Assembly (NCBI GenBank): GCA_026706845.1
Contig: JAPOXY010000278.1
Location: 4,131-68,130 of the forward strand
Length of the DNA: 64,000 bases
Direction: 5' to 3'
Source: Gemmatimonadota bacterium
Lineage (GTDB): Bacteria; Latescibacterota; UBA2968
The position numbers and the translations under genes were made by a program. Positions within the stretch are counted from its first letter, which is position 1. Each line of letters begins with the position of its first letter. Shown here one piece after another: positions 6,311 to 62,329 of this stretch. The notes beneath the pieces are model-generated. The model saw only the letters and a list, made by a program, of their open reading frames with translations. It did not search any database and had not been told where the DNA came from.

Positions 6311-6495
6311 AACACACTCCGGGGGAAGATGCGACGGAATTGCGTTAAAGGTGTGGTATTATAATGCGATGAGGGGCAGATTGTCAAATGAAAACAGCAA
6401 TCCTTAAGGTCGGATGGGCATAAATCCATCCGACCTTTTCTTTTCAGAAGAGAGTTAGCGGGAAGAATCCCTGAAGAAAGGATGAAATGGCGTAT

Positions 6496-6558
6496 TTGTA
6501 ACACAAATGTCACAATCTTGTGACCAAAGCGTGACCGTTTTGGAAGCGATTTGTAACA
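6496..6558. promoter_or_regulatory. Pho-box-like array. Direct repeats TGTAACA/TGTCACA/TGTGACC at 11-bp phasing, in the divergent ppk / porin-pst intergenic region
   Basis: 7-mers at 6498, 6509, 6520, ~6531 and 6552 are spaced 11 bp apart. This resembles PhoB box organisation (7-bp repeats separated by 4 bp) upstream of a pst operon and ppk. Confidence 0.45.
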
Positions 6559-6617
6559 TTATAGCGATATCTTATCGCTGAGAACGTCGTTTATCCATCA
6601 ATTCGGAGGGAGAGCAC

Positions 6618-7661: not shown

Positions 7662-8639
7662 ATGACCAGATTTATTTGTATGATCGCATGTGTGGCTGTT
7701 TTGACACAGGCTGCGGCTCAGGCGCAGCAAGATTCGCCTGTTCCCGCGTATCAAAAGGTGAGTGGGATTTCCGGAAGTGCCAACAGCATTGGATCAGATA
7801 CGATGAATAATTTGATGACGCTGTGGCTGGAGGGGTTTCGCAAGTACTATCCCAGTGTAACTATTCAGGTCGAGGGCAAGGGATCGAGCACTGCACCGCC
7901 CGCGTTGATTGAGGGGACTGCACAATTCGGCCCTATGTCGCGTCCGATGAAGGCTTCGGAAATTGACAAATTTGAAAAGCATTTTGGATATCCACCAACA
8001 TTGTTGCGCGCCTCGCTGGATGCACTGGCTGTTTTTGTCAATAAAGACAATCCCATAAAAGGGTTGACTTTGCAGCAGGTAGATGCGATTTTTTCCAAGA
8101 CGCGACGCGGTGAGTACAGGGAAAATGTTACGAGATGGGGGCAGTTGGGTTTGGGAGACGATTGGAAAAATGCCGCATTTAGCCTGTACGGGCGCAATTC
8201 CGCGTCGGGCACTTATGGGTTCTTCAAAGATCACGCGTTGTTTAAGGGCGATTTTAGAGATGAAGTAAAAGAGCAGCCCGGGTCTGCTTCGGTTGTGCAG
8301 GGCGTGGCCGAAGACAGGTACAGTATTGGTTATAGTGGCATTGGTTACAAGACCTCTGGCGTGCGTGTCGTACCTCTGGCGCTGGAAACTGGCGAACCCT
8401 TCAGAGAAGGCACGATAGAAAATGTGATAGATGGATCTTATCCTCTGGGGCGTTTTTTGTATTTGTACATCAACAAGGCACCCAATAAACCTCTCGATCC
8501 GCTCGTGAGAGAATTTTGTAAATTCATTTTCTCCAAAGAAGGGCAAGAGATTGTCGTTAAAGATGGCTATATGCCCGTGCCCTATCAGGTGGTTAAAGAG
8601 GAACTCGAGAAGTTACAATTCCCCACCCTAACCCCCTGA
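7662..8639 (+). CDS. pstS: Phosphate ABC transporter substrate-binding protein PstS
   Basis: Signal peptide followed by the PstS family core (SGSANSIGSDTMNNLMTLWLEGFRKYYPSVTIQVEGKGSSTAPPALIEGTAQFG). Confidence 0.9.
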   Translation: MTRFICMIACVAVLTQAAAQAQQDSPVPAYQKVSGISGSANSIGSDTMNNLMTLWLEGFRKYYPSVTIQVEGKGSSTAPPALIEGTAQFGPMSRPMKASEIDKFEKHFGYPPTLLRASLDALAVFVNKDNPIKGLTLQQVDAIFSKTRRGEYRENVTRWGQLGLGDDWKNAAFSLYGRNSASGTYGFFKDHALFKGDFRDEVKEQPGSASVVQGVAEDRYSIGYSGIGYKTSGVRVVPLALETGEPFREGTIENVIDGSYPLGRFLYLYINKAPNKPLDPLVREFCKFIFSKEGQEIVVKDGYMPVPYQVVKEELEKLQFPTLTP

Positions 8640-8810
8640 TTACCCGCGGTGAGACATTAGAGGGCCACACAGCCCCATCCCAGATACGAGAGAAAGTTCC
8701 CGCCCTGTCTCGCACCTCTTAATGTCTCATCCCATATAAGCCCTGCTTAAAAGGTAGGCACGGCAGGGCTGATTCTCTCACTCCTCACCTTTTACGTCTC
8801 ACTCCTTATT

Positions 8811-11051
8811 ATGGTACTTCCATTAGAACCGCTATCAAAGCGACAATTGCCGGGCATCACGCCAAAGGCACATCTGATGGACCGCGTTGGGCGGTGGATA
8901 ATCACTGCTGGCGGCATCGGGGTGATCCTGTCGGTGCTGGGCATTTTTCTTTTTGTGTTGATGGAGTCCTATCCCCTGTTTTTGAAGCCGAGCGCGTCCA
9001 GGGCACATACCTTTGATTTTTCGCACCGTCAGCCCGTCCTGTGTACGGGGGTTGATCCCTATCAGGCGGTGATGTTTGTCGTGCATGAAGCGGGGATTGA
9101 TTTTGTGGATATGACCACAAAGTCGGTGACAGAGTCTGTGTCTATTCCCGAACTACAGGGACGGCGTATTCGGTCGGCTTATCGCGCTCTGGATAATACG
9201 CATGTTGGTCTGGGTCTGGACGACGGTACAATGCTGGGTTGCCGCGTGAATTTTGCCGTGGATTACGATGCGGAGGGAAAGCAGATTGTGACGCCGTCTT
9301 TTTCTGTTGAGTCGTCGATGGATCTGACTAATGAGGCTCTTGTGCATCTCGTATTTCGGCACGATGGAAAATATCGAGGTACAGTAATTGGCATTGCGGA
9401 TTCCGGGCAACTCGTTTTGGGGATTTCCGAAAAACAGCGGGGTCTTTTGGGCGGTGGCAAAACCACGATTCGCACATACGATTTGACCGATGAGATTAAA
9501 GGGCGCGCCAGAGTGGGTGCTGTGGCAAAATCGGGACGCTATGTTCTGGTGGGCACAGACCGCGGTGAAGTATTTCGATGGGAAATTGGACGGGCGAGTT
9601 CCAATCCCAGGCTGTTGGATTATTTCCGGGTTTCCGATCAGGAGGTGTCTGCGCTGGATTTTGTGCTGGGTGATGTGTCGCTCGTCGTGGGCGATGTGGG
9701 TGGTCGCGTGTCTGTCTGGATGCCCGTCAGAACGAGCGAGGACGACAATAAAAGGGTGTTCAAAAAGATCCACACTTTGCAGTCTCATCCGATGGCGGTG
9801 ACTGCACTGGCGTCGTCTGCTCGCGACAAACAATTTTTATCGGGCGATGTATCGGGGATGGTTGCGTTGCATCACATGACATCGGAACAAACATTTTTCC
9901 AATTGCCCGGTGATGATTCCATTCAATCCCTGTCTTTTGCGCCAAAAGCAAATGGCTTTTTGACTGTGAGTAAGTCTGGGCAGGTGACGGATTTTGGTCT
10001 TCAAAATCCACATCCCGAAGTGACGTTACAAACGCTTTTTGGCAAAGTGTGGTACGAGGGATATACGGAGCCTCAATACGTGTGGCAATCCACGGGTGGA
10101 TCGGATGATTTTGAACCCAAGTTGAGTATTGTACCTTTGATATTTGGCACCTTTAAGGGTACGCTTTACGCGATGTTATTCGCGCTGCCTCTATCTGTTC
10201 TGGCAGCGATTTATACATCGGAATTTGCCTCTCCCGGTGTGCGTAGTGTGGTCAAACCCGTAGTGGAATTGATGGCTTCGCTTCCCAGTGTGATTTTGGG
10301 CTTTTTAGCTGGTTTGTGGTTGGCTCCGCTGCTGGAGACGAGGATCGTCGGTGCATTGCTGTTGTTGCCCTGTGTGCCTATTGTCGTGGTGATATGCGCC
10401 TGGGGCTGGGGGCAGGTGTCCGAAGATCTTGTACGTAGAGTACCCGATCACTGGATTCTAACTTTACTGGCGGGCATCGCGTTGTTCGCGCTCTATCTGT
10501 CGTTCGCGCTCGGTCCAGTGGCTGAATCGCTTTTGTTCGGCGGCAATTTTCAAGGCTGGCTGCTCGGTACAACGGGTACGCGCTACGATCAGCGCAATTG
10601 TCTGGTGGTGGGCTTTGCGATGGGGTTTGCCGTAGTGCCCATTATTTACACGATCTGCGAAGATGCCCTGTCGAGTGTGCCGCAGCATCTGCGCGCCGGG
10701 TCACTCGCGCTTGGCGCAACGCCCTGGCAGACGGCTATCCGCGTGGTGTTGCCCACGGCGAGCCCGGGCATTTTTTCCGCGACTATGATTGGATTTGGCC
10801 GCGCTGTGGGCGAGACGATGATTGTGCTGATGGCTACGGGTAATACGCCGATTCTGGATTGGACCATTTTTAATGGCATGCGCACGATGTCGGCCAATAT
10901 CGCCGTGGAGATTCCCGAAGCGCCCCATGAAGGTACGCTTTATCGCGTGTTGTTTTTGACAGGGGTTTTGCTGGCGGCGATTACTTTTTTGGTGAATACA
11001 CTGGCAGAAGTGGTGCGGCAGCGTTTGCGCGAGAAGTATAGCAGGATTTGA
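8811..11051 (+). CDS. pstC: Phosphate ABC transporter permease PstC, long form with a ~380-aa N-terminal periplasmic domain
   Basis: C-terminal ~300 aa is a typical PstC permease. The N-terminal extension after TM1 is as in long-form PstC (for example Pseudomonas). Confidence 0.85.
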   Translation: MVLPLEPLSKRQLPGITPKAHLMDRVGRWIITAGGIGVILSVLGIFLFVLMESYPLFLKPSASRAHTFDFSHRQPVLCTGVDPYQAVMFVVHEAGIDFVDMTTKSVTESVSIPELQGRRIRSAYRALDNTHVGLGLDDGTMLGCRVNFAVDYDAEGKQIVTPSFSVESSMDLTNEALVHLVFRHDGKYRGTVIGIADSGQLVLGISEKQRGLLGGGKTTIRTYDLTDEIKGRARVGAVAKSGRYVLVGTDRGEVFRWEIGRASSNPRLLDYFRVSDQEVSALDFVLGDVSLVVGDVGGRVSVWMPVRTSEDDNKRVFKKIHTLQSHPMAVTALASSARDKQFLSGDVSGMVALHHMTSEQTFFQLPGDDSIQSLSFAPKANGFLTVSKSGQVTDFGLQNPHPEVTLQTLFGKVWYEGYTEPQYVWQSTGGSDDFEPKLSIVPLIFGTFKGTLYAMLFALPLSVLAAIYTSEFASPGVRSVVKPVVELMASLPSVILGFLAGLWLAPLLETRIVGALLLLPCVPIVVVICAWGWGQVSEDLVRRVPDHWILTLLAGIALFALYLSFALGPVAESLLFGGNFQGWLLGTTGTRYDQRNCLVVGFAMGFAVVPIIYTICEDALSSVPQHLRAGSLALGATPWQTAIRVVLPTASPGIFSATMIGFGRAVGETMIVLMATGNTPILDWTIFNGMRTMSANIAVEIPEAPHEGTLYRVLFLTGVLLAAITFLVNTLAEVVRQRLREKYSRI

Positions 11052-11055
11052 TGTT

Positions 11056-12669
11056 TTGGAGATGGATGTGAAAAATTTTTGGAAAACAGGTGTGCCATTT
11101 ATCTGGTTGACCGGCAGCGCGCTGGCACTTTGTTTGCTCATGATTACAGGGCTGATCGCGCTGGTTATGTACAATGGCACTGGATTTTTTTGGCCCTCGG
11201 ATATCGAAGCAGTGATACTCAAAGATGGTCGGAGGGCGATGGGGCAGCGGTGGGACAAACAGGAAATTCCCGTGTCGCACCGAACGGGGTCCGGGCAATT
11301 TCGCATTCAGCTCAAAGTGGGCAATCGCGATGTGTATGGCAGCGATTTTCAATGGATAGATGAATCGGATATTCAATCGACGGATTATCCCGTAGATGCG
11401 GTGGTTTTTGAACGGCGCGAGTGGGGCAATTTTTACGGGTTTATCGAAGCGCTGTACGAAGGTGAAACCCAGATGACGAATACATGGGATGTGCTGCAAG
11501 CACAATTGGATAATACCCGGGAACGACACGAACAGATTCGGCGAATTGAAAAAGATGCGATTGGCGACTTAAATCGGCAAATTGAAAGCCTGCGACTAAA
11601 AAAACGCGAGATAGAATTGGGTGGTGGAAATGCCGATGAAGTGGATGCGATTGATCGAGAGAGCAGAACCTATTGGGAAGCTTATGAACAATTGGCTGAC
11701 CAACTGGCGCAATTGCGTGCAGCCAACGAGATCTACCGCATAGATGTGCGGTTAATTGGCGGCGAGGTGCGGCAGATTGCCACGGCCGATATCGTGCGTG
11801 CTTATCGTCCCAACCGACTGGGGATTTTGGGAAAAATGAGCGTTTATTTTGAACGCGTTGGGGAATTTTTATTTGCTGAACCCCGTGAGTCCAATACAGA
11901 AGGCGGGGTATTTCCCGCGATCTTTGGCACTGTTATGATGGTTTTTTTGATGAGTTTGGCGGCTGTGCCATTTGGTATCTTGGCCGCGCTCTATTTGCGC
12001 GAATACGCCAGGCAAGGTATTTTAGTTAGAGTGATTCGCATTGCGGTTAATAATCTGGCGGGTGTACCTTCTATTGTTTTTGGGATGTTTGGACTGGGAT
12101 TTTTTGTTTATGGCATTGGCGGAAGTATCGATCAACTCTTTTTTCCCGAGGCGTTGCCCACGCCTACATTTGGTACTGGCGGCATTTTGTGGGCGTCGTT
12201 GACCCTGGCATTGCTGACAGTGCCGGTGATGATCGTTTCAGCCGAAGAAGCGCTTTCTGCCGTGCCGAGTGATGTGCGTGCCGGGTCGCTGGCTCTGGGG
12301 GCGACCAAATTGCAGACTATTTTGCGCGTGGTTTTGCCCGGCGCGTTGCCGGGTATTCTCACGGGCATTATTCTCGTGATTGCACGCGGTGCTGGCGAGG
12401 TGGCTCCGCTGATGATTACTGGCGTTGTGAAATTGGCTCCTGCATTGCCCGTGGATGGTGTCTGGCCCTTTTTTCACCTGGAACGCAAGTTTATGCATCT
12501 GGGGTTTCACATTTACGATGTGGGTTTCCAGTCGCCCAATGTCGAGGCGGCTCGTCCCATGGTATATACGACGACTTTATTGCTGATGGGAATTGTACTG
12601 GCTCTGAATCTGGTGGCGATTCTGGTTCGCAATCGGCTTCGCAAGCGCGTTGGTGGTGCGACGTTCTAA
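11056..12669 (+). CDS. pstA: Phosphate ABC transporter permease PstA, long form with a ~250-aa periplasmic/coiled-coil insertion after TM1
   Basis: PstA permease core (…GSLALGATKLQTILRVVLPGALPGILTGIILVIARGAGEVAPLM…). The insertion contains a coiled-coil-like segment. Confidence 0.85.
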   Translation: MEMDVKNFWKTGVPFIWLTGSALALCLLMITGLIALVMYNGTGFFWPSDIEAVILKDGRRAMGQRWDKQEIPVSHRTGSGQFRIQLKVGNRDVYGSDFQWIDESDIQSTDYPVDAVVFERREWGNFYGFIEALYEGETQMTNTWDVLQAQLDNTRERHEQIRRIEKDAIGDLNRQIESLRLKKREIELGGGNADEVDAIDRESRTYWEAYEQLADQLAQLRAANEIYRIDVRLIGGEVRQIATADIVRAYRPNRLGILGKMSVYFERVGEFLFAEPRESNTEGGVFPAIFGTVMMVFLMSLAAVPFGILAALYLREYARQGILVRVIRIAVNNLAGVPSIVFGMFGLGFFVYGIGGSIDQLFFPEALPTPTFGTGGILWASLTLALLTVPVMIVSAEEALSAVPSDVRAGSLALGATKLQTILRVVLPGALPGILTGIILVIARGAGEVAPLMITGVVKLAPALPVDGVWPFFHLERKFMHLGFHIYDVGFQSPNVEAARPMVYTTTLLLMGIVLALNLVAILVRNRLRKRVGGATF

Positions 12670-14288: not shown

Positions 14289-14351
14289 TGGGAACCGGCC
14301 CGTGACTCGGTTCCCATTTTTTTTGCCCCGAATTTGAATTCGGGGCTTTTT
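14289..14351 (+). terminator. Tandem rho-independent terminators after phoU
   Basis: Hairpin gggaaccg…cggttccc + T8 (14289-14324), then hairpin gccccgaatt…aattcggggc + T5 (14325-14351). Confidence 0.75.
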
Positions 14352-14440
14352 CGTTGACCCAAAATTGGTACCTGTGTATTTTACTGTTTGAAGATACTAC
14401 TATATTATATTAATATTAAAGAATAAGGTGGTTAGTCTCT

Positions 14441-14980
14441 TTGCCCAATTGCATAAAATCCGAAGCCCGATTTTGCGAGCGCTGTGGGACTTTGCTGGTT
14501 GTAAAAGCAGTTGAAGATCGGGAGAGGCCTTGTTGTCCGTCGTGTGGATTTGTGGCCTATCTTGACCCCAAGGTAGCAGCCGGGGTTATTGTAACCCTCG
14601 ATGGTGGCGTTGTCCTGCTCAAGCGCAATATTGATCCCGGGTTTGGCAAGTGGGTGTTCCCCGGCGGATATGTGGATGCAGGCGAGCCAACCGATGTCGC
14701 GGCTGTGCGCGAAACCCGCGAGGAAGTGGGGTTAGAGGTTGAGATCGGCGAGTTGCTCGGCGTGTTGTCTTATGAAGGGGAACGGGTGGTGCTGATTGTT
14801 TATACTGGACGGGTTGTGGGCGGAAAGTTGGAAGGCAATTTTGAATCGCAAGCTGTGGCTACATTTGCCCCTCGGGATATTCCCTGGAATGATCTGGCTT
14901 TTGACACGACCAGAGAGGCATTGCAAATTTGGGTGGCGCAGTATGGCGAAATGTATGAAAAAGAAAGGTTATTATGCTGA
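14441..14980 (+). CDS. NUDIX hydrolase with an N-terminal Cys4 zinc ribbon (NADH-pyrophosphatase-like architecture)
   Basis: CERCG…CCPSCG zinc ribbon. Nudix box GGYVDAGEPTDVAAVRETREEVGLEV. Overlaps the next gene by 7 nt. Confidence 0.85.
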   Translation: MPNCIKSEARFCERCGTLLVVKAVEDRERPCCPSCGFVAYLDPKVAAGVIVTLDGGVVLLKRNIDPGFGKWVFPGGYVDAGEPTDVAAVRETREEVGLEVEIGELLGVLSYEGERVVLIVYTGRVVGGKLEGNFESQAVATFAPRDIPWNDLAFDTTREALQIWVAQYGEMYEKERLLC

Positions 14981-15885
14981 ATTCTATTGAAGATGTTGAA
15001 GAGCGGTTTGCCGAGCAGGGGTATATCACGGACCGCACATTGGCAACGACGATTTTTTTGGCGCAGTCGCTTGGCAAACCAATTTTTCTGGAGGGGGAAC
15101 CAGGCGTTGGAAAGACGGAAGTAGCCAAAGTTATGGCCGGTATTTTTGATACCGAGTTGATTCGATTGCAGTGCTATGAAGGCATTGATGCCAATACGGC
15201 ATTGTACGAATGGAATTATCCGCGCCAGATGCTGGAGTTGAGGCTTGAAGAAGCGCGAGGAATCGACAAGGCCGAAATTGGTCAAAATATTTTCCGCGAA
15301 GATTTTTTGCTCAAGCGCCCCCTTTTGTCGGCTCTTGAGGGTAGCGCAAAAAAGCAGCAGGTGTTGTTGATTGACGAGGTGGATCGGTCGGATGAAGAGT
15401 TTGAAGCGTTTTTGCTCGAAGTTTTGTCGGATTTTCAGATTACAATTCCCGAGATTGGGGCGATAAGAGCGATGCAGGTGCCGTTTGTCGTGCTTACGTC
15501 CAACCGCACGCGCGAGTTGCACGACGCGCTGAAGCGCCGGTGTTTGTATTTGTGGATTGACTATCCCACGTTTAGCAAAGAAATGGATATTGTGCGGTCG
15601 CGTGTGTCGGGTGTGCAGGACGAATTGGCACAACAGGTTTGCGGGTTTATGCAATTGTTGCGCAATCGCGATTTTTACAAAAAACCCGGTGTTGCTGAAA
15701 CGATTGATTGGGCACTGGCCCTGATGGCTATGCAAGTTGAAGAATTGGACCCGCAGACAGTGGATGCGACATTGGGATGTGTTTTGAAGTATAAAGAAGA
15801 TATCGAAAAAATTCAGGAAGATGGCCTGCCACAACTGATTGAGAAGGCCCGGTTGTTAAAAGAGCGCACACAAGTTGCCGTTTAG
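14974..15885 (+). CDS. MoxR-family AAA+ ATPase (CoxD/CbbQ-like)
   Basis: Walker A LEGEPGVGKTEVAK, Walker B/sensor LLIDEVDRSDEEF. ~300-aa MoxR size. Confidence 0.85.
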   Translation: MLNSIEDVEERFAEQGYITDRTLATTIFLAQSLGKPIFLEGEPGVGKTEVAKVMAGIFDTELIRLQCYEGIDANTALYEWNYPRQMLELRLEEARGIDKAEIGQNIFREDFLLKRPLLSALEGSAKKQQVLLIDEVDRSDEEFEAFLLEVLSDFQITIPEIGAIRAMQVPFVVLTSNRTRELHDALKRRCLYLWIDYPTFSKEMDIVRSRVSGVQDELAQQVCGFMQLLRNRDFYKKPGVAETIDWALALMAMQVEELDPQTVDATLGCVLKYKEDIEKIQEDGLPQLIEKARLLKERTQVAV

Positions 15886-15893
15886 GAGATCAC

Positions 15894-17030
15894 ATGCCAA
15901 GGACCATGCTGGGACGAGTCGTCGGTTTTTCAAGGGCTTTGCACAGTGCAGGTGTTGAAGTCAATGCGGGCAATCTCATTGATTTGTGCGATAGTTTTCA
16001 ATATATCAGCCTGCACAATCGGAGCGATTTTTACGCTGCTGCGCGTGCGACACTGGTGTCGCGCTACGACGATCTGGAGACTTTTGACGAGGTTTTCAGG
16101 GCTTTCTGGGCGCGGCCGATTTTGCCCGACGATATGACGCTGACCGATACGGATGCCGGCGGAGATCCCGACCTCGATGTTCAGGCAGATGTCAATGAGG
16201 TGGTGGATACTGCAGATTTGCAGGAAGAGGCCGAGGGGGAGGGCGAATCCGAGGAAGTCGGGTATAGTCCCGATGAGGCTTTGATGGGAAAAGATTTGGC
16301 CGCAATGTCCGATCGCGAAATTGAGCAGGCCCGAAAGGTGATCCACGAAATTGTGAATATCATTGCCAATCGCCGCAGTCGCAGGCGCGTACCCGAGAAT
16401 CGGGGGGCTGAACTGGATTTCAGGCGTACATGGCGACGCAATGCGTTATATGGTTCTGATGGTGTGGAATTGATGATGAAGCGGCGGCGCATCAAAAAGA
16501 CCAAGCTGATGTTGTTGTGTGATGTGAGCGGCTCTATGGATTGTTATAGCCGTTTTTTGATTCGCTTTATCTACGCGCTCAAGCGCGAAATCCGAGATGT
16601 GGAAGTCGGGGTGTTTTCCACGCGGATGACCGCGATTTCGCGTTTGCTGAAAACAAAAGGTATTGAAGAATCGCTCGTGGAAGTGGCTGATACAGTACAC
16701 GACTGGGCGGGTGGCACAGATATTGGCGGGTGTTTGCGCGAGTTTAACGACCAGTTTGCACGCGATATGTTGCACTCGCGCACTGTGATGATTATTGTGA
16801 GCGATGGTTGGGACCGGGGCGATCCCGATTTGATGCGGCAAGAGATGGCGCGATTGCGAAAGCGCGTGCATAAGTTGATGTGGCTCAACCCGCTTTTGGG
16901 TACGCCGGGATATCAGCCCCTGTGTTTGGGGATGAAGACAGCACTTCCATATCTGGATTATTTTTTGCCCGCACACAATCTGGAGAGTTTGATTCAACTT
17001 GCCCGCACACTGCGGTCTGTTTGGAAGTAG
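15894..17030 (+). CDS. VWA domain protein, CoxE-like partner of the MoxR ATPase
   Basis: C-terminal VWA with MIDAS (LLCDVSGSM…). N-terminal region resembles the CoxE family. Confidence 0.8.
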   Translation: MPRTMLGRVVGFSRALHSAGVEVNAGNLIDLCDSFQYISLHNRSDFYAAARATLVSRYDDLETFDEVFRAFWARPILPDDMTLTDTDAGGDPDLDVQADVNEVVDTADLQEEAEGEGESEEVGYSPDEALMGKDLAAMSDREIEQARKVIHEIVNIIANRRSRRRVPENRGAELDFRRTWRRNALYGSDGVELMMKRRRIKKTKLMLLCDVSGSMDCYSRFLIRFIYALKREIRDVEVGVFSTRMTAISRLLKTKGIEESLVEVADTVHDWAGGTDIGGCLREFNDQFARDMLHSRTVMIIVSDGWDRGDPDLMRQEMARLRKRVHKLMWLNPLLGTPGYQPLCLGMKTALPYLDYFLPAHNLESLIQLARTLRSVWK

Positions 17031-17039
17031 GGGGATGTT

Positions 17040-18131
17040 ATGGCTGGTCGTGATGTTTTTCAAGAGGCGTTGACCCTGATTTCTCAGGGGGAAAAGGCAG
17101 CCTTATCGACGATTGTGTCGAGCAAGGGGTCTTTGCCGATGAGTAAAAAGGCCAAGATGCTCGTGCGTCCCGATGGCGTGATTATAGGTACGGTGGGCGG
17201 TGGTTGTTTGGAAGCCGATGTATGGGCCGAAGCCCGTCATGTGATGGAAACCGAAGCACCGACGTTGCAGAAGTTTATTTTGACGGAAAAACACGCGGGT
17301 GAAAATGGCCTCAATTGCGGCGGCAATGTCGAGATTTTTACCGAGCCTCTGTTGCCCGGTCGTGCAGATGACATGCTCGACGAGATTGCTCGGGTTCGCA
17401 AAGTGCGCGGTTCGGCTGTGTTGGCAACGCTGGTTTCGGGCGGCGATCAGGTGGGCGCGAAGTTATTGGTGCATCCCGATGGCAGAACAGTGGGGCGTCT
17501 GGGCCATGCCCTTGCCGAAGCCTGTGTGCGCGAAGAGGTGGCGGCTTTTGAGGCGATTCCGGAGAGTTTGCTCAAGGTTATAAAAATCGGTTCAGAATCC
17601 GTTGTGGTCTTTTTGGAATCTATTTGCCCCGAGCCCACGCTGTTTTTGTTTGGCGGGGGGCACGTTTCTTTTGCCATTGCACAGATCGCGCATTCGGTCG
17701 GGTTTCGGATTGTGGTTATTGACGATCGGCCCATGTTTGCCAATAAAGAGCGGTTTCCCATGGCGAGTGAAACGCTGACGCTGGAGATGGAGACGGCTTT
17801 TGATCATATAGTTGTTGACGATTTGTCTTATGTGGTGGCGGTGACGCGGGGACACCAGCACGACAAGCCGGTTATTGAGCAGGCGATTAATACCCAGGCG
17901 GCGTATGTTGGCATGATTGGCAGCCGCCGGAAGATTGCGTTGATGTGGAAAGAGTTTGAGGCCAAAGGCATTCCGAGAGAAAAATTGGATGCGGTTCACG
18001 CGCCGATTGGATTGGATATCGGCGCAGATACGCCCGAAGAAATCGCCGTGAGTATTGTTTCTGAACTTATACAGGTGCGCCGATCACAGGGAAAGCCCAT
18101 TCATCAGGGTATGTCGCTGTCATCGGTGTGA
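17040..18131 (+). CDS. XdhC/CoxI-family molybdenum-cofactor insertion accessory protein
   Basis: N-terminal XdhC_CoxI domain (…AALSTIVSSKGSLPMSKKAKMLVRPDGVIIGTVGGGCLEADV…) plus a C-terminal Rossmann-like XdhC_C domain. Confidence 0.8.
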   Translation: MAGRDVFQEALTLISQGEKAALSTIVSSKGSLPMSKKAKMLVRPDGVIIGTVGGGCLEADVWAEARHVMETEAPTLQKFILTEKHAGENGLNCGGNVEIFTEPLLPGRADDMLDEIARVRKVRGSAVLATLVSGGDQVGAKLLVHPDGRTVGRLGHALAEACVREEVAAFEAIPESLLKVIKIGSESVVVFLESICPEPTLFLFGGGHVSFAIAQIAHSVGFRIVVIDDRPMFANKERFPMASETLTLEMETAFDHIVVDDLSYVVAVTRGHQHDKPVIEQAINTQAAYVGMIGSRRKIALMWKEFEAKGIPREKLDAVHAPIGLDIGADTPEEIAVSIVSELIQVRRSQGKPIHQGMSLSSV

Positions 18132-18277: not shown

Positions 18278-21166
18278 ATGACGAGATGGATAATCGCATT
18301 TGTTGCGATGTCGTTTTTATCCGCATCGGCGATGGCCGGGGTGACGGGTAAAATTGCGGGTCAGATTGTTGACAAAGACGACGGTGGTGGATTGCCCGGT
18401 GCCAATGTGGTGGTTCTGGGCTTGCACAGTGTCTATGGTGCGACATCCGATCCCGAAGGTAATTATGTGATTTTGAATGTGCCCGCAGGCACGTATGACG
18501 TAAAATGTAGCTTTATCGGGTATCAAGATGTGGTGCTCAAAGGCATCAAGGTGTTGCCCGATTTGACTACCGAAGTTGATTTTGTGCTCGCAGAGCAAGC
18601 CCTGGAAGGCGAAACTATCGAAGTGGTGGCGGTGCGCCCGCTGGTGCAGAAAGACAAAACCAGTTCGATGCGCCTCGTAACCAGCGAAGAACTCGAGTAT
18701 ATGCCCGTTCGCGGGTATGCAGCGGCCACGTCCTTGCAGGCGGGCGTGACGAACCGGAACGGCTCGCTTTATATACGCGGCGGGCGGTTTTCCGAAGTTG
18801 ATTACATCGTCGATGGGGTATCGCAGAAGGATTTGCAATTCGGTTCATCGACCACGACCCTGAGCAATGGCGCTATTGATCAAGTATCCGTGATTGTGGG
18901 TGGGTTTGAAGCGGAGTATGGGCGCGTGATGTCGGGCGTTGTCAAGGTGGTGACGCGCGAAGGCGGGCAGCACTATTCGGGGTCTGTGGAATACATTACA
19001 GATGAGATGAATGACCGCAGTTGGGCCGGTGCGCCTTCTTATGGGTATAACACTACCGATGCGACATTTGGTGGTCCGCTCGTTCCCGGAACGAACGGAC
19101 CTTCATTTTTTGTTTCTGGAGAATACATCGATCGCCTCGACCGCAGCCCGCGCTGGGGGGTGGAAGCCCACGAGTGGGAAAAAGACCTGTTGTCACAGGA
19201 AGAGTACGATTTGCTCAGCGAGGGCATATTGCCGCACTATACACTCGAAAGATGGGGCTGGCAGGCCAAGCTGGCGTATCGGTTGTCCGACGAAATCGGC
19301 CTGAAAGCTGGGATTGTAGGCTCAAAAACGGATCGCTTGAGCTATAGTCACACCTATCGCTATAATTTGCGGCACGCGCCGCGTGTAAAAAGAAATAACA
19401 ACTCGGCATTTGCCCGCGTGACCTACACGCTCGGTGCAAAGACCTTTTTCACTTTGCAAACAAGTGTTTTTGACCAGAATTTCAAAGTAGGCGACGGGGT
19501 TCATTTCGACAATTTGCACGACTATGCCCGTCCCCAGGGCAATTCGCGTTATGACGCGGAAAGTTTGTTTGCACGCGGCGATGTGGATTCAACCGAGATT
19601 ACGCGGACAACGGAAACCATCAATGATCGCCCTATAACGTATTTTGAAGGCGATGAAGGGCGCGTGTATGATGATTTTGAGCAAACCAGCTCATTTTATC
19701 TCACGCCTATCGATTTTGATTTGACCAGCCAGATCAGCCGCAATCACCAGTTTAAGCTCGGTTTTGACGTGCAAATGCATCGGTTGCGTTATTACCGGCA
19801 CCTGACCCCCAGTTTGACCTACCGCGGTCCGTTCGTCAGCATAGACGACAGGGGTGGCTTTCAGGATGTAGATCGCTACGGGTATGATTACAACTGGAAT
19901 AATCAGGTAGTCGAGCCTCTAAATTCGACCCGAGACGCGCAAAAAGAACCCATTTTGGCTTCGTTTTACGTGCAGGACAAGATGGAATACGACGGGTTGA
20001 TCATCAATGCGGGCGTGCGATACGATTATTTGAATGCGAGTACCGATGTGCTGGCGAATGAAGGTGTGCCACTGGGTGGCGATTCCACGCTGGACCCATC
20101 GGATTTGGCTGGCAACAGCGTGTATCACAAGATCAGCCCGCGCCTGGGTGTTGGATTTCCCGTCACAGACAAGACTGTATTCCACATGAACTACGGCATT
20201 TTTTACCAGCAACCCAAGCTGGAAGACCTGTATGTTGGTCTGGATTATCTGGAATACAAAGCGCCTTTAGGAGGATATTATTACGCTTTTGGCAATCCGA
20301 ATCTCAGGCCGGAAAAAACCACGGCTTACGAAGTGGGTGTGGTGCAGCAGTTGGGCGGCCATGCCAGTGTCGATGTCACTGCTTATTACAAAGCCGTGGA
20401 AAACCTTGTTCAGGTAACGACAATTCCGTCTGATCCCGTGGCTTTTGCCTCGTTTCGCAACAACGACTACGGAACCATCAAGGGGCTGGACTTTGGTTTG
20501 CTCATGCGTCGCGTAGGGCGCACAACAGCGCGCGTGTCTTATTCTCTGGCTTATGCGACGGGTACGGGATCAAGCCCACAAACCCAGCGGCGGATCGCCT
20601 GGGGCTTCCAACCCGGTGTGACCGAGCCGCCCAAATCGACCTCGCCACTCGACTTTGATCAACGCCACAAAATTGCGGCATCGATTGACTATCGCTTTGT
20701 AGATAAAGATGGCCCGAGGTTCCTGGGTGGTCAGCCGCTGTCCAATGCGGGGATCAATGTGTTGTTCGAAGCCGGGAGTGGGTTCCCCTATACGCCCACG
20801 TTCACGTTTAATGAAGTGACCACAGGGGCTTCGGCGTCACGTCCTTCGGGACCGGTGAATTCCAGCTATGGTCCCTGGACATTCAGGACCGATGTGAAGG
20901 CGAACAAGCGTTTCAAAATTATAGGGCTTCAGGGTGATCTGTACGTCTGGGTGCTCAATTTGCTCAACCGCGCCAACGCAACCAGCCCCGTGTATTCGAG
21001 CACGGGCAGCCCGATGACTTCGGGCTGGTTGAATACAGACGAAGGCCGCAAATTTGTGGAGCGCTTTGGTCAACTGGGCGAAGACAAATACAAGCTCAAA
21101 GAGAAAAGCCCATTCAACTTTGGCACGCCGCGGCAGGTTCGCTTCGGACTCGCGCTCAGCTTCTAA
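18278..21166 (+). CDS. TonB-dependent outer-membrane receptor with an N-terminal CarboxypepD_reg-like domain
   Basis: Signal peptide. CarboxypepD_reg block (GVTGKIAGQIVDKDDGGGLPGANVVVLG…GNYVILNVPAGTYDV), then plug and 22-strand barrel. C-terminal …GLALSF. Confidence 0.8.
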   Translation: MTRWIIAFVAMSFLSASAMAGVTGKIAGQIVDKDDGGGLPGANVVVLGLHSVYGATSDPEGNYVILNVPAGTYDVKCSFIGYQDVVLKGIKVLPDLTTEVDFVLAEQALEGETIEVVAVRPLVQKDKTSSMRLVTSEELEYMPVRGYAAATSLQAGVTNRNGSLYIRGGRFSEVDYIVDGVSQKDLQFGSSTTTLSNGAIDQVSVIVGGFEAEYGRVMSGVVKVVTREGGQHYSGSVEYITDEMNDRSWAGAPSYGYNTTDATFGGPLVPGTNGPSFFVSGEYIDRLDRSPRWGVEAHEWEKDLLSQEEYDLLSEGILPHYTLERWGWQAKLAYRLSDEIGLKAGIVGSKTDRLSYSHTYRYNLRHAPRVKRNNNSAFARVTYTLGAKTFFTLQTSVFDQNFKVGDGVHFDNLHDYARPQGNSRYDAESLFARGDVDSTEITRTTETINDRPITYFEGDEGRVYDDFEQTSSFYLTPIDFDLTSQISRNHQFKLGFDVQMHRLRYYRHLTPSLTYRGPFVSIDDRGGFQDVDRYGYDYNWNNQVVEPLNSTRDAQKEPILASFYVQDKMEYDGLIINAGVRYDYLNASTDVLANEGVPLGGDSTLDPSDLAGNSVYHKISPRLGVGFPVTDKTVFHMNYGIFYQQPKLEDLYVGLDYLEYKAPLGGYYYAFGNPNLRPEKTTAYEVGVVQQLGGHASVDVTAYYKAVENLVQVTTIPSDPVAFASFRNNDYGTIKGLDFGLLMRRVGRTTARVSYSLAYATGTGSSPQTQRRIAWGFQPGVTEPPKSTSPLDFDQRHKIAASIDYRFVDKDGPRFLGGQPLSNAGINVLFEAGSGFPYTPTFTFNEVTTGASASRPSGPVNSSYGPWTFRTDVKANKRFKIIGLQGDLYVWVLNLLNRANATSPVYSSTGSPMTSGWLNTDEGRKFVERFGQLGEDKYKLKEKSPFNFGTPRQVRFGLALSF

Positions 21167-21181
21167 AAGGGAGATCAGGAC

Positions 21182-24100
21182 ATGAAAAGCTTTTTGAATA
21201 TTTTGACGCTGGCTTTGATGAGCGTGAGCATGGCTGGCATTGCGCTGGCTGTATCGCCCTCGCAAAAGCCGCGGCTGGGTAAAATCAGCAATGATCAAGT
21301 GATTGATGTGAACAATATCAGAATGTTTGTGACCAACCAGGGATCGTTTGCCTGGGACCTCGCGACCGGAGCTTCGGGTCTTGAATTTCCCAAGGGCACG
21401 GGCAAAACCGCTGTATTTGCCTCTGGTCCGTGGATTGCGGGCAAGGTCAATGGCGAAATCCGCGTGGCGATTGCCGAGTATTCGTTTGAGTATGCACCTG
21501 GTCCGATTTTGCCCGACGGCACACCCGCCGACCCGCAACTCGATCGATATCGGGTGTATAAGATCAGCAAAGGCGATGGTCCGGAAAATCAGGATTACGC
21601 GCAGTGGCCGGTTGAAGACGGCGCGCCGGTCAATCCCGATGGTACGCCGATGGTGCTGGGAGATCAGACCCTGTGGGCGGTTTATAACGATGCCGATCCC
21701 GGCGTTCACACCAATATGCAGACCGCGCCTCTGGGCGTTGAAATACAGCAGACGACATTTGCGTTTGACCGCACAGGTCCACTGGGCAATGTGGTATTCA
21801 TCAAATTTTTGCTCATTAACAAGGGTGGCAATACCATCGATAGCACGTATGTGTCGCTGTGGTCCGATCCCGATCTGGGGCAGTTCGATAACGACCTGGT
21901 GGGCTGCGATGTGGAGACCAGCTTTGGATTTTGCTATAACGGGTCAAACGTAGATGCGCAGTACGGTTCGTCACCTCCGGCCGTGGGATATGACTTTTTC
22001 CAGGGTCCGATTGGCGATGACGGTGTGGAATTGCCCATGACGTCGTTTAACAAATATATCAACGGCACGGATCCTCATACCGCAGAAGAAACTTATAATT
22101 ACATGAAAGGTCTTGATCCGGATGGCGGCGTGGCCGATCACACCGATCCAATTACGGGTCAGGTGAAGGCTTTTATGGTCGATGGAGATCCGGTTACGGG
22201 CGCGGGCTGGCTTGACGAAAATCCAGCTGATCGCCGCTTTATGCTCACGGCGGGACCGTTTACCTTCGCGCCCGGCGATACGCAGGAAGTGGTGGGCGCC
22301 ATTATTATAGGGCAAGGTCAAGATCGCCTCACGTCGATTACGGCCGCGCGTTTTAACGACACATTTGCACAATCGGCTTTTGATGCTAATTTTGCACTGC
22401 CATCGCCTCCGCCTGCACCCAAAGTGTCCGTAGGTGTGACGGGCGATCACGGGGGCAATGGCAGAATTCAGTTGACCTGGGGAGATGACTCAGAAGTCGC
22501 CTCAGGCGATTATGCATTTGAAGGTTATAACGTGTATCAGGGCGAGTCGGTCGCTGGCCCCTGGAGACGCCTTGTGACTTATGACATGGTCAATGGCTCG
22601 GCCATTATTTTTGACAGTCAGTTCGATGAAGGTGCCGGTGTGGTGATCAACTCGCCCGTGCAATTTGGCGGCGACTCGGGTATTCGGCGCTTTATTGAAC
22701 TGACCGAGGATAAGGTTTTGGGTGGTCGTCTGGTGACGGGTAAAACCTATTATTTTGCGGTGACGGCCTATTCGTTGAATGAGAGCAGGTCGCCCAAAAC
22801 GCTCGAGACATCCATCTCGCCTCTGGCAGATGGGCGCATGACGTTTAAGCCTCTCTCGGATGAGATGATCCCGGCCAATGGTATTGTGCCGCGCGGTCCC
22901 ACTGCGGGTACGCGATTCAATACCGTGGAGGTGGATAGTGTCGTAGAGCACACATCGGGTGTAAGCGATGGTATCGTGGCTGTGGAGGTGGTTGACGATA
23001 CACGGGTTACGGGCGCGTCTTACGAAGTGCGCTTCCGCGATACTGATGCGGGAACGGTGTGGGATCTGATCAATCTGTCGAGTGGTCAGGCCGTGCTTTC
23101 AGATATGCAGCAGCACGCAAATCTAAATGATGCGATTACCAATCCGATTGTCGAGGGTTTGCTCGTGCGCGTGACGGGTCCGCCTCTCGGCATGAAAGAT
23201 TGGGATATTCCATCGGGTGAGCGGTGGATGACCTGGGCGAATACCCGTCCCGATTTGGCTGGTTTTTCTACTGAAGGCTTCAGAGGTGCGATAACGGGCG
23301 ATGTTGCCCATAGTTGGTTTGGCCCAACGAGTGTGCCGCCTTCGCGATTGGTCAATGTGGAATTGCGATTTACGAGTGTGATTGAAGATGATGGCGAGGA
23401 TCAGTACAAACCCCTTGACCTGACGAATCCCAATGTGTCTTATGGGTATCGGTATTTGCGCGCTGCGGGTAGAGCTGCACCTGCACCCGATGAACTAACC
23501 CTGTCCAAAGTGCCTTATGACTGGAGCAATTATATCATCAATACAGAAGGTCCCGGTGTTTATGTGTATCAAGACCGGAGTCCCATTGCTCTGTCGGCAT
23601 GGGATGTTGAAAATAATCGGCGTCTCGAAGTGGGTTGGCTGGAAAACAACTTGGCTGGCGGCCTGGTCAATGGGGCCTGGGGGCCGCCATTTTACGAAGA
23701 TGTACCCCATACGTTTGTCGCTCGTGAGTGGCTATTCATTTTTGATCGGGATTATACCGAGCCGGACGATGATTCCAATTTGGCGGAGTTGTCTCAGGGC
23801 TTGATCAACGATGCGCCGGCACCGCCCATTATGTATATCCTTTTTGTTAATCGCCGCATTCCAGATCGTTTCCCGCAGGATGGCGATTCGTTTTTGATGG
23901 TCGCCAATAAAATCAATACCTCCAACGATGTGTTTTCATTTAGTACGCAGGGGGCTCTCCGCGGTGACCAAGAGTTGGCGGCGGAGGATTTGACAAAAAT
24001 TCTGGCGGTGCCCAATCCGTATCTGGGGCGTTCGTCTTATGAATTCACTTCTCTCGCACGCCAGATGCGTTTTACCAATCTTCCCGCGCAGTGCACGATC

Positions 24101-24304
24101 CGAATTTTCAGTCTGTCGGGTGATCTGGTGCGAACGATTAACCACAATAACGGTCTGTCGTTTGATACCTGGGATCTGAAAACAGATCAGGGCGTGCTGG
24201 TTGCCAGCGGCATTTATATCGCGCATTTTGATGCGCCAAATATCGGTACGCATTTTATCAAGTGCGCGGTGTTCATGGAAGCCGAGACGCTGAATACATT
24301 TTAA
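21182..24304 (+). CDS. Large secreted protein (1040 aa) with a T9SS-type C-terminal sorting domain
   Basis: Signal peptide MKSFLNILTLALMSVSMAGIALA. The last ~90 aa (…VPNPYLGRSSYEF…CTIRIFSLSGDLVRTI…WDLKTDQGVLVASGIYIAHF…) match the Por_Secre_tail / FlgD-Ig-like β-sandwich pattern. Confidence 0.6.
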   Translation: MKSFLNILTLALMSVSMAGIALAVSPSQKPRLGKISNDQVIDVNNIRMFVTNQGSFAWDLATGASGLEFPKGTGKTAVFASGPWIAGKVNGEIRVAIAEYSFEYAPGPILPDGTPADPQLDRYRVYKISKGDGPENQDYAQWPVEDGAPVNPDGTPMVLGDQTLWAVYNDADPGVHTNMQTAPLGVEIQQTTFAFDRTGPLGNVVFIKFLLINKGGNTIDSTYVSLWSDPDLGQFDNDLVGCDVETSFGFCYNGSNVDAQYGSSPPAVGYDFFQGPIGDDGVELPMTSFNKYINGTDPHTAEETYNYMKGLDPDGGVADHTDPITGQVKAFMVDGDPVTGAGWLDENPADRRFMLTAGPFTFAPGDTQEVVGAIIIGQGQDRLTSITAARFNDTFAQSAFDANFALPSPPPAPKVSVGVTGDHGGNGRIQLTWGDDSEVASGDYAFEGYNVYQGESVAGPWRRLVTYDMVNGSAIIFDSQFDEGAGVVINSPVQFGGDSGIRRFIELTEDKVLGGRLVTGKTYYFAVTAYSLNESRSPKTLETSISPLADGRMTFKPLSDEMIPANGIVPRGPTAGTRFNTVEVDSVVEHTSGVSDGIVAVEVVDDTRVTGASYEVRFRDTDAGTVWDLINLSSGQAVLSDMQQHANLNDAITNPIVEGLLVRVTGPPLGMKDWDIPSGERWMTWANTRPDLAGFSTEGFRGAITGDVAHSWFGPTSVPPSRLVNVELRFTSVIEDDGEDQYKPLDLTNPNVSYGYRYLRAAGRAAPAPDELTLSKVPYDWSNYIINTEGPGVYVYQDRSPIALSAWDVENNRRLEVGWLENNLAGGLVNGAWGPPFYEDVPHTFVAREWLFIFDRDYTEPDDDSNLAELSQGLINDAPAPPIMYILFVNRRIPDRFPQDGDSFLMVANKINTSNDVFSFSTQGALRGDQELAAEDLTKILAVPNPYLGRSSYEFTSLARQMRFTNLPAQCTIRIFSLSGDLVRTINHNNGLSFDTWDLKTDQGVLVASGIYIAHFDAPNIGTHFIKCAVFMEAETLNTF

Positions 24305-24336
24305 CGAACTGATTCTGGCTTATGGAGGAATAAATT

Positions 24337-25392
24337 ATGTTCAGGAAGATGATTTTTCTGTTTGCCGCGCTGGCATTGATCGCTCAGGATGCCCGTGCAG
24401 GCGATGAGAGCCGCATCGGCACAGCCGCGGCACAAGAGTTGCGCATTCCAATTGGTTCGCGCGGTACAGCACTTGGAGGCGCCATACTGGCCCATGTAAA
24501 AGGTGCGGAGGCATTGCAGTGGAATCCCTCGGGATTGGTATTTGGAACGCACAAACGCGAAGCCATATTTTCATATCTGGATTATATCGCGGATATGAAT
24601 GTGAATTATTTTGCGATTACTACGCGTCTGCGGGATGATATTTCGGTGGGGATCAGTGCCCGCGTGTTTGCGGTGGGCGATATTGTTGTGACGACCGAGG
24701 AGTCGCCCGAAGGCACGGGCGAGATACTCTCCCCGAGGTTTTCGTGTGTGACATTTACATATTCGCAGTTGTTGACAGACCGCGTGTCGTTTGGCACCAC
24801 GATCAAATATATCCACGAGGCGATTAAGCGAGAGGTCGCCAATGGTCTGGCGTTTGATTTTGGTTTTCAATACAAAACCGCGCTAAAGGGTTTGACGCTG
24901 GGTATTGCTATGCGAAACTATGGTCCAGACCTGCGGTTTGATGGTCCGGATCTGGACCGGGTGGTGAAATTGCAAGACGCGGTGCCAGAGGCCGATCCCC
25001 AAGCCGGGTCGCGCAGTTTCCGCACATCGCTGGCAGCGGCTGAGTTGCCCACGTCTATAGAAATCGGTTTTTCCTATGCATTCTATGAAGATGCGCTGGG
25101 CAAAGCTGCTTTTTCTGCGACCTTCCGCAATAATAATCTGGCGACTGACGAGTATCAGGCTGGCGTTGAGTATTCGATGAAGCAAATTCTTCAGTTGCGC
25201 GGAGGGTATGTGGCTTCTCCAACAGGTGATGCCCTGCCCAGCGGGTTTAAGAAGGAATATATTCTGGGCCCGACGTTTGGCTTTGGTCTGAATGTGCCCA
25301 TGGGCAATATGGCTTTTCAGGTGGATTATGCCTATGGCAAGACAGAGTACTTTCAGGATAATCACTGGTTGACTGTGGGACTCGGGTTTTAG
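24337..25392 (+). CDS. PorV/FadL-like outer-membrane β-barrel
   Basis: Signal peptide. N-terminal hatch-like motif …GSRGTALGGAILAHVKGAEALQWNPSGLV (the FadL/PorV NPxGL motif). C-terminal …VGLGF. Adjacent to the T9SS-CTD protein. Confidence 0.5.
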   Translation: MFRKMIFLFAALALIAQDARAGDESRIGTAAAQELRIPIGSRGTALGGAILAHVKGAEALQWNPSGLVFGTHKREAIFSYLDYIADMNVNYFAITTRLRDDISVGISARVFAVGDIVVTTEESPEGTGEILSPRFSCVTFTYSQLLTDRVSFGTTIKYIHEAIKREVANGLAFDFGFQYKTALKGLTLGIAMRNYGPDLRFDGPDLDRVVKLQDAVPEADPQAGSRSFRTSLAAAELPTSIEIGFSYAFYEDALGKAAFSATFRNNNLATDEYQAGVEYSMKQILQLRGGYVASPTGDALPSGFKKEYILGPTFGFGLNVPMGNMAFQVDYAYGKTEYFQDNHWLTVGLGF

Positions 25393-25491
25393 AAGTGTGA
25401 AGTGTGAAGGAGGAAGTAGGAGAAGCACCCGCCCTGGGGAGGTGTTGGGTGGATTTCTTACTTCTCTCTTCTCTTCTTATCGGTGTATTTA

Positions 25492-25535
25492 ACCGCCTGT
25501 GTTGGTTTATCTCGCCAATACAGGCGGTTTTTTTG
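25492..25535 (+). terminator. Rho-independent terminator after the PorV-like gene
   Basis: Hairpin accgcctgt…acaggcggt followed by T7. Confidence 0.7.
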
Positions 25536-25591
25536 GTACTCAAAAAAATTTATTTATATAAAAAACAATAAGATAGAGTCTGAAGGATATT

Positions 25592-25606
25592 TTGGCACGG
25601 ATATTG
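25592..25606 (+). promoter_or_regulatory. σ54 (RpoN) -24/-12 promoter element upstream of pspA
   Basis: TGGCACG-N4-TTGCA (tggcacggatattgca) is a perfect match to the σ54 consensus. It lies ~55 bp upstream of the pspA ATG. Confidence 0.55.
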
Positions 25607-25660
25607 CAGAGAGATAGATGTGCGTTTGATCGATAACCAAAAACTAAAAGGAGATATACC

Positions 25661-34228: not shown

Positions 34229-34311
34229 AATTAGCAACTCGGTGTACAACTGGTTCAGGTCGGTCCATCAACGGCGTTATTCAGCACTGACATTTCTTCA
34301 CCGAAAGGACT

Positions 34312-36762: not shown

Positions 36763-36775
36763 GAACCTGGCATGC

Positions 36776-62314: not shown

Positions 62315-62329
62315 GTCTGACTCCTGGGA

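Follow-up and report, generated by a model that had tools for sequence, protein, structure and literature searches.

A putative molybdo-flavoenzyme maturation operon led by a Nudix hydrolase gene in Latescibacterota

A four-gene cassette at positions 14441 to 18131 (+ strand) of contig JAPOXY010000278.1, from a bacterium labelled Gemmatimonadota and placed by GTDB in Latescibacterota, encodes a zinc-ribbon Nudix hydrolase, a MoxR ATPase, a von Willebrand A (VWA) protein of the CoxE family, and an XdhC-family chaperone of the molybdenum cofactor (Moco). The window, that is, the whole stretch of DNA that was analysed, makes up 64 kb of a metagenome scaffold 72.6 kb long (ENA ERZ23496111, scaffold_407). 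We consider it probable, at roughly two chances in three, that the cassette is a co-transcribed maturation unit for a xanthine oxidase (XO)-family molybdo-flavoenzyme encoded elsewhere, and that it is led by a lineage-specific Nudix gene. Maturation sets of MoxR, VWA, and XdhC genes have been described before, as have XdhC genes located away from their enzymes; what is new here is the partnership with Nudix across the phylum. A Nudix gene that appears stably co-transcribed with maturation machinery across an entire uncultured phylum offers a concrete and cheap biochemical hypothesis.

Organization of the operon

The first gene (14441-14980, +) encodes the Nudix hydrolase of 179 aa. It has a TTG start with a ribosome binding site (RBS; AAGGTGG, 14425-14431) 9 nt upstream, and its stop overlaps the start of the second gene by 7 nt (ATGCTGA). 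The second gene (14974-15885, +) encodes a CoxD-type MoxR AAA+ ATPase of 303 aa, and translation of the two is predicted to be coupled in the window. The genes for a VWA_CoxE-family protein of 378 aa (15894-17030, +) and an XdhC/PaoD-family Moco chaperone of 363 aa (17040-18131, +) follow after spacers of 8 nt and 9 nt, respectively. Good RBSs are found at both spacer junctions, including AGGAGA before the VWA gene. Open reading frames (ORFs), Pfam matches, and motifs bear out the four identities and positions given by the first-pass annotation, and the 7-nt overlap by which it let the Nudix gene lead the set can be read in the sequence. Its wording of an overlapping operon is right as to the operon and the Nudix/MoxR junction and a slight overstatement otherwise, because the two remaining junctions are spacers.

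Upstream, the pstSCAB-phoU unit ends in two tandem intrinsic terminators (14289-14346, +), one with a 10-bp stem and T8 (14289-14316) and one with a 9-bp stem and T5 (14325-14346). Next comes a promoter-like region of AT-rich DNA (14354-14408, +) with two overlapping pairs of sigma-70-like hexamers, which are consensus matches only. Given strong terminators and promoter-like DNA between phoU and the Nudix gene, the latter thus appears to head its own four-gene unit, and the Nudix, MoxR, VWA_CoxE, and XdhC genes are best read as a single transcription unit. No hydrophobic segment suggesting a membrane anchor was seen in any of the four proteins, all of which look soluble.

Conservation of the cassette in Latescibacterota

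A profile of the Nudix subfamily was scanned against one genome per GTDB species and returned 80 loci. Those at 57-98% identity belong to Candidatus Latescibacterota, with some metagenome-assembled genomes (MAGs) labelled Gemmatimonadota, and include several complete chromosomes of 5-8 Mb. Wherever the contig was long enough to judge gene order, the order Nudix-MoxR-VWA-XdhC was kept (32 of 32 Latescibacterota-type loci). Nudix and MoxR overlap by 7 nt (a distance of -7 nt) in 11 of these loci; 17 loci have a gap of 21-51 nt, and three a gap exceeding 100 nt. One further locus gave an apparent overlap of 140 nt, probably an artefact of how start sites or alignments entered the estimate. Gaps of 51 nt or less (29/32 loci) make this junction as tight as that between MoxR and VWA. 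Within this one phylum, co-transcription of the Nudix gene with the maturation genes is well supported. Within the window's clade (dS 0.13-0.35), dN/dS values were 0.06-0.08 for Nudix, 0.02-0.06 for MoxR, 0.03-0.04 for VWA, and 0.06-0.10 for XdhC. Such strong purifying selection on all four genes means that the cassette is functional and not decaying.

In 27 of the 32 loci, PhoU is found no more than 1 kb upstream of the cassette, and phosphate-related genes recur near it in divergent genomes. The Nudix protein could on this ground be a phosphate-scavenging pyrophosphatase belonging to the neighbouring pstSCAB-phoU, porin, Ppk/Ppx, and Na/Pi symporter genes. We regard this as very improbable. 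Membership in the Pho regulon was rejected on the two strong terminators and promoter-like region that lie between phoU and the Nudix gene, and on five loci without PhoU that keep the four genes together (L017, L019, L025, L030, and L032/L087). Moreover, Nudix orthologues in other phyla do not lie beside pho genes.

An adjacency of PhoU that is nearly as conserved as the cassette implies that gene order is generally sticky here, and this lends weight to a different explanation. The Nudix protein may be a housekeeping pyrophosphatase, active in nucleotide sanitation or on a substrate such as ADP-ribose or an NAD-like compound, whose gene was fixed early upstream of the MoxR operon and is co-transcribed with it while having no function for Moco. 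We take this to be a serious contender that falls somewhat short of even odds. What speaks against it is that the adjacency of Nudix to MoxR outlasts both the loss of PhoU in five loci and the turnover of both flanks, since the cassette is intact in the 8-Mb genomes L086 and L087, where the two flanks are entirely different. Spacing as tight as that between MoxR and VWA, the predicted translational coupling, and terminators that part the Nudix gene from phoU and not from MoxR argue in the same direction. The link drawn in the first-pass annotation is hence not an accident of one locus, as 32 of 32 Latescibacterota-type loci share it, including the genomes in which both flanks differ.

The Nudix gene outside the phylum

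Methylomirabilota, Binatia, Acidobacteriota, and deltaproteobacterial MAGs contain orthologues of the Nudix protein with 49-56% identity. The neighbours of these orthologues are genes for a HAD phosphatase, Rieske-like, YgfZ/GcvT-like, SDR, LysR, and ThiI proteins, and these non-Moco surroundings favour a housekeeping enzyme that merely travels with the operon. By tblastn, XdhC, MocA, or CoxM/L was detected 5-10 kb from the Nudix gene in about 19 of 47 loci from other phyla. A wider operonic link to Moco genes was considered on this basis and rejected, as unrelated housekeeping genes (DAHP synthase, FolD, DsbD, peroxiredoxin, HtrA, ThiI, DnaJ) lie between, some of them on the opposite strand. 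The cases reduce to about three lineage-level syntenies and were not counted as linkage. The separation of XdhC, MocA, and CoxM from the Nudix gene by such genes again agrees with the housekeeping explanation.

Co-occurrence of this Nudix gene with coxDE/xdhC in relatives, which the first-pass annotation had proposed as a check, was thus borne out inside the phylum and failed outside it. The link appears to be real and confined to the Latescibacterota lineage, and a functional connection of the Nudix protein to Moco maturation is plausible.

The MoxR, VWA, and XdhC proteins

The MoxR protein matches the Pfam families AAA_5, AAA, and AAA_3 and is made up of one AAA+ module, some 300 aa long, bearing Walker A GEPGVGKT at aa 41-48 (15094-15117) and Walker B VLLIDE at aa 130-135 (15361-15378). 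It is placed in the CoxD type by the VWA_CoxE gene 8 nt downstream and by homologues in molybdenum hydroxylase clusters. The NCBIfam equivalogs MadB (NF047784, 264.5 bits vs a cut-off of 475) and MadC (NF047783, 81.3 bits vs 600) were considered as identities and rejected, as both scores fall under the cut-offs; the literature gave unrelated Mad proteins only. The third protein belongs to VWA_CoxE (PF05762, 187.9 bits vs a cut-off of 26.4, E 2.2e-55) and carries the metal ion-dependent adhesion site (MIDAS) motif DVSGS (DxSxS) at aa 210-214 (16521-16535). In the fourth protein, both domains of the XdhC family score above cut-off (PF02625, 94.3 bits; PF13478, 154.3 bits), giving an XdhC_CoxI N-domain and an XdhC_C Rossmann domain. 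Its best match by sequence in the PDB is 2WE7 (E 4e-48), and its score against the xanthine_xdhC model TIGR02964 is 129.6 bits, under the cut-off of 161.6.

Outside the phylum, XdhC homologues with 56% identity are found in clusters of the form MoxR-VWA_CoxE-CoxM-CoxS-MocA-XdhC. When metagenome contigs were scanned with a profile of MoxR, 80 loci were recovered, among which the architecture S-L-M-(MocA)-MoxR-VWA-XdhC-(MocA) recurs, where S, L, and M are the Fer2_2, MoCoBD, and FAD_binding_5 subunits of the hydroxylase. These clusters agree with the statement of the first-pass annotation that the trio normally flanks molybdo-hydroxylase genes. Since MoxR-VWA-XdhC usually stands beside structural genes outside the phylum, the trio can be assigned to a known maturation module, and by sequence and analogy it would be the ordinary maturation set of XO-family enzymes. 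Of the 59 loci with enough upstream sequence to judge the gene directly 5' of MoxR, 13 have MocA there, 11 a structural subunit, and five XdhC. A gene with a Nudix box was present in only one of the 80 MoxR loci (L101), itself a Latescibacterota-type cassette, and this rarity also counts for the housekeeping explanation. No MocA gene was found within 10 kb of any Latescibacterota-type cassette.

A separate context was observed for XdhC homologues that are 59-61% identical to the window protein and come from Zixibacteria and marine MAGs (L088, L089, and L090, around 8000-11100). They lie in a conserved cluster of HesB (Fe-S_biosyn), Mrp/ParA, Prok-JAB peptidase, and XdhC genes. MoxR, VWA, Nudix, and molybdenum hydroxylase genes were not called within the fetched DNA of these loci (up to 10 kb on either side).

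The Nudix protein and its possible substrates

Membership of the first protein in the NUDIX hydrolase superfamily is clear from PF00293 (67.2 bits vs a cut-off of 21.1). The Nudix box GYVDAGEPTDVAAVRETREEVGL (aa 76-98, 14666-14734) fits the pattern GX5EX7REUXEEXGU with intact catalytic glutamates, and its residues are invariant across 25 homologues. The cysteines C12, C15, C32, and C35 of the zinc ribbon (14474-14545) are likewise invariant in the homologue alignment, and their CxxC...CxxC arrangement before the Nudix fold makes this a zinc-ribbon Nudix protein, with a score against the N-terminal zinc ribbon model PF14803 (24.0 bits) just under the cut-off of 25.6. An AlphaFold2 model was obtained with a pLDDT of 91.5. 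It superposes on the zinc ribbon and Nudix part of NudC (TMq 0.70), to which sequence identity is 17-18%. From sequence and model, the protein appears to be a catalytically intact, soluble enzyme built like this part of NudC.

Specificity is a different matter. All 25 NCBIfam matches are far under their cut-offs, the best being MutT (48 bits vs 97.9), and neither equivalog score nor specificity motif places the protein in a characterised Nudix subfamily (MutT, NudC, ADPRase, NudG, CoA pyrophosphatase, and others). The NudC family has an N-terminal domain and the NADH-specificity motif SQPWPFPxS; when the Nudix protein of the cassette was read by eye, neither that domain nor this motif was seen. 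The closest solved structure is PDB 3CNG, a NUDIX hydrolase from Nitrosomonas europaea, which matches over the full length both by sequence (E 8e-24 over the zinc ribbon and Nudix domain) and by fold (TM 0.81). Assigning a substrate from fold or motifs was tried and given up: the model is confident, but the best match is itself an uncharacterised protein with no assigned substrate. The lack of a specificity motif and of any characterised close homologue in these searches is again in keeping with a housekeeping pyrophosphatase.

A more specific proposal gives the Nudix protein a dedicated role as pyrophosphatase of molybdopterin cytosine dinucleotide (MCD), molybdopterin guanine dinucleotide (MGD), or adenylylated molybdopterin (MPT-AMP), in which it would edit or recycle the form of the cofactor passed on by XdhC. 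These three compounds are textbook Nudix-type substrates, all of them nucleoside-diphosphate-X compounds and thus chemically apt, and the fold resembles the part of NudC that acts on the dinucleotide cofactors NAD and dephospho-CoA. Suggestive, if weak, is also the fact that the slot 5' of MoxR, taken by MocA (MCD synthase) in 13 of the 59 other loci, is taken by Nudix in Latescibacterota. A shared position is, however, not evidence of a shared substrate, and the association is seen in one phylum only. A hydrolase that breaks down the MCD needed by PaoC-type enzymes would moreover work against the client, unless plain Mo-MPT is what the client uses. In the literature, no published link of a Nudix enzyme with XdhC, MCD, or Moco was found apart from one mechanistic analogy in a reference list, and no biochemical support was found either. 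Nudix enzymes are not known to take part in Moco metabolism. We therefore hold this proposal to be quite improbable. If true, a Nudix pyrophosphatase for Moco dinucleotides or MPT-AMP would add something notable to the biology of Moco, and a Nudix protein in the MocA slot that controls the cofactor form delivered by XdhC would be a previously unknown step of Moco handling.

The client enzyme

The first-pass annotation stated that molybdenum hydroxylase subunits do not occur in the window, and this was upheld. Pfam searches and precomputed Pfam matches, covering nearly all ORFs, returned no MoCoBD, FAD_binding_5, or Fer2_2 protein in the 64 kb; a few housekeeping genes were identified by eye only (RND pump, Ppk, IleS, ArgG/H, sulfatase, HAD). 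Searching the window by tblastn with E. coli PaoABC and the S, L, and M subunits of relatives gave zero matches. As to structural genes just outside the window, a possibility that had been raised at the same time, none lies in the 4.5 kb of contig past the 3' end, which carries ABC permeases, a PLD-like gene, and one unknown gene.

The relatives tell more about the enzyme. In L030, whose Nudix and MoxR proteins are 57% and 86% identical to those of the window, co-directional genes for a Fer2_2 protein (S), a 701-aa MoCoBD protein (L), a FAD_binding_5 protein (M), and a cNMP-binding protein lie upstream, followed by Nudix and MoxR, where the contig ends. The best homologue of this large subunit (86%) is found on a JGI contig of 224,661 bp with the gene order S-L-M-79aa-cNMP-CBM48-porin(-)-Nudix-MoxR-VWA_CoxE-XdhC-PspA. 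The structural genes are 1.3-3.2 kb upstream of the cassette in these two relatives. Two further L homologues (66-67%) share a 211-kb contig or a 5.66-Mb chromosome with the cassette at a distance of more than 10 kb. The description of the cassette as lacking a cognate structural enzyme is consequently unsupported in that form, and the label 'orphan' is only partly right. By analogy with these relatives, we infer that the client of this genome's cassette is encoded elsewhere in the genome.

The S, L, and M subunits of the relatives are 30-43% identical to E. coli PaoA/B/C, and the small subunit carries the twin-arginine translocation (Tat) signal SRRTFLQG, in SRRTFLQGIGAGAAA. Carbon monoxide dehydrogenase (CODH) was ruled out as the client, as both active-site loops, AYXCSFR (form I) and AYRGAGR (form II), are absent from the relatives' L subunit, which also scores far under the cut-offs of the CODH models. 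Since this loop is missing in the candidate client, copper insertion is not expected. The sequences make a periplasmic, Tat-exported, PaoABC-like hydroxylase the likely client. Nothing specific on molybdoenzymes of Latescibacterota was found in the literature.

Some further features of these loci were noted. A conserved, cysteine-rich ORF of 79 aa and a cNMP-binding protein follow the S-L-M genes of Latescibacterota (L093, 13126-14074; L030, 8731-9675), and L087 and L025 retain the cNMP gene even though S-L-M is absent there. At about 10340 in L030, the Nudix gene has an in-frame stop where others have Tyr (VV*AG vs VYTG), which points to a sequencing error or else to a pseudogene. The site in L087 at about 6100-7300 shares AP_endonuc_2, an acetyltransferase, a redoxin fragment, and the cNMP-binding gene with the flanks on the 224-kb JGI contig, and S-L-M-79aa is missing from it. 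Comparing the two sites indicates gain or loss of the client enzyme at one fixed position, with the cassette remaining in place.

Proposed function and its weighing

From the protein families and the genome comparisons, we infer the biochemical roles of the cassette proteins, the client in this genome, and any role of the Nudix protein as follows. XdhC, judging by its family, would bind Moco in the cytoplasm, allow its sulfuration, and insert it into the apo large subunit. A MoxR hexamer would be docked by way of the MIDAS site in the VWA protein, and ATP-driven remodelling of the active site of the apo-enzyme would let the cofactor be completed or inserted. With a Tat signal on the client, as in the relatives, cofactor loading must finish before export, so that maturation would end before the protein leaves the cytoplasm. 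The substrate hydrolysed by the Nudix protein would most likely be a nucleoside-diphosphate-linked compound with a part in the process, for which a cofactor dinucleotide, an adenylylated intermediate, and an inhibitory by-product are candidates.

Several results weigh against this maturation unit. No client came to light for the window's own clade: around the cassette itself, the 14 kb upstream and the 50 kb downstream contain none, and none of the 120 best homologues listed for the relatives' L subunit lies on a chromosome of that clade. L087 keeps the cassette at a site syntenic to the JGI contig where S-L-M is missing, so that retention of the cassette extends beyond that of this particular client. 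The XdhC protein reaches 328.3 bits against the equivalog XdhC_rel_AOR (NF045664, 'XdhC family aldehyde oxidoreductase maturation factor'), a little below the cut-off of 350. None of the 47 Nudix loci in other phyla is operonic with Moco genes. Finally, the Nudix protein evolves faster than its partners, with 79% amino-acid identity in L015 vs 94-96% for MoxR and VWA.

The first of these results could also mean that, in the window's clade, MoxR-VWA-XdhC has been re-purposed for another metallo- or cofactor-dependent client or for general cofactor handling, and no longer serves an XO-family enzyme. We judge such a change of client unlikely. Speaking for it are the lack of a close L-subunit orthologue, among the 120 best homologues listed, on the chromosomes of the clade and on two cassette-bearing genomes of 8.08 and 8.43 Mb, the retention of the cassette in L087, the 59-61% identical XdhC homologues beside HesB, Mrp/ParA, and JAB peptidase genes in Zixibacteria and marine MAGs, and the extreme constraint on MoxR and VWA (dN/dS 0.02-0.04). 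The listed L homologues reach down to about 50% identity, however, and more distant XO-family paralogues fall outside this list. All informative contexts of this MoxR/VWA/XdhC lineage include XO-family subunits, and XdhC homologues apart from their clients are already known (PMC2997495). A maturation unit for an XO-family enzyme encoded elsewhere therefore remains our preferred explanation. Very strong purifying selection on the cassette, even where the adjacent client was lost, suggests several clients or a role broader than the single-enzyme model of CODH.

Other features of the window

The gene directly 3' of XdhC is PspA in both L087 and the JGI contig. The window differs in having three genes inserted ahead of PspA, for a TonB-dependent receptor, a protein of 1040 aa with no Pfam matches, and a PorV-like protein (18278-26335; PspA on the + strand at about 25661-26335). 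A long ORF on the - strand (25550-26296) is spurious, because PspA occupies the + strand there.

Upstream of the cassette, at 8811-12669, PstC (746 aa) consists of an N-terminal WD40-like beta-propeller fused to an ABC permease domain, and PstA is unusually long too (537 aa). A GC-rich island at about 34000-38300 (GC 0.60 vs about 0.50 around it) contains a dimethylglycine dehydrogenase-like gene (DAO+GCV_T) and a convergent GcvT-like gene, and may have been horizontally acquired. A second, unrelated AAA+/VWA-like trio is located at 60015-63652 (-). Its MoxR-like ATPase has 440 aa (AAA_5 + AAA_lid_2). The other two proteins, one of 259 aa with glycine repeats resembling GXGXG and one of 507 aa, gave no Pfam match at E 1e-5.

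Comparison with known systems

The closest evolutionary relatives of the window trio are the S-L-M-(MocA)-MoxR-VWA_CoxE-XdhC clusters that are common in soil and sediment metagenomes (for instance L150, L153, L157, L161, L167, and L091). They have the same order, with MoxR proteins 53-69% and XdhC proteins 31-59% identical to those of the window. They differ in that structural genes are included, MocA is often directly 5' of MoxR, and a Nudix gene is not present.

The coxD-coxE-coxF genes in the CO-dehydrogenase cluster of Oligotropha (Afipia) carboxidovorans represent the same three families in the same order; the comparison is one of families and order. What such proteins do is known in outline from CoxD/E/F and from XdhC/PaoD, and by analogy the window trio would mature the active site of a molybdenum hydroxylase after translation (PMC4240915; PMC2997495). 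Unlike coxDEF, the window trio stands apart from structural genes and is led by Nudix, and all three of its proteins look soluble. The candidate client in relatives also differs, being a Tat-exported, PaoABC-like enzyme that lacks the CODH loop.

With E. coli paoABCD, the client of the relatives shares a PaoA-like Tat signal and three subunits (2x[2Fe-2S], Moco, and FAD). Periplasmic aldehyde oxidoreductase needs an XdhC-family chaperone, PaoD, before export (PMC2997495). The gene order in the relatives is S-L-M, whereas paoA-B-C corresponds to S-M-L, and the relatives' subunits score far under the NCBIfam cut-offs of PaoA and PaoC. For PaoD, only a weak alignment was obtained, limited to the C-terminal portion of the cassette-type XdhC homologues from related loci. 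The chaperone of the cassette is encoded in a separate operon together with MoxR and VWA, which E. coli pao does not have. XdhC homologues encoded away from any molybdoenzyme operon have been described and may serve several partners (PMC2997495).

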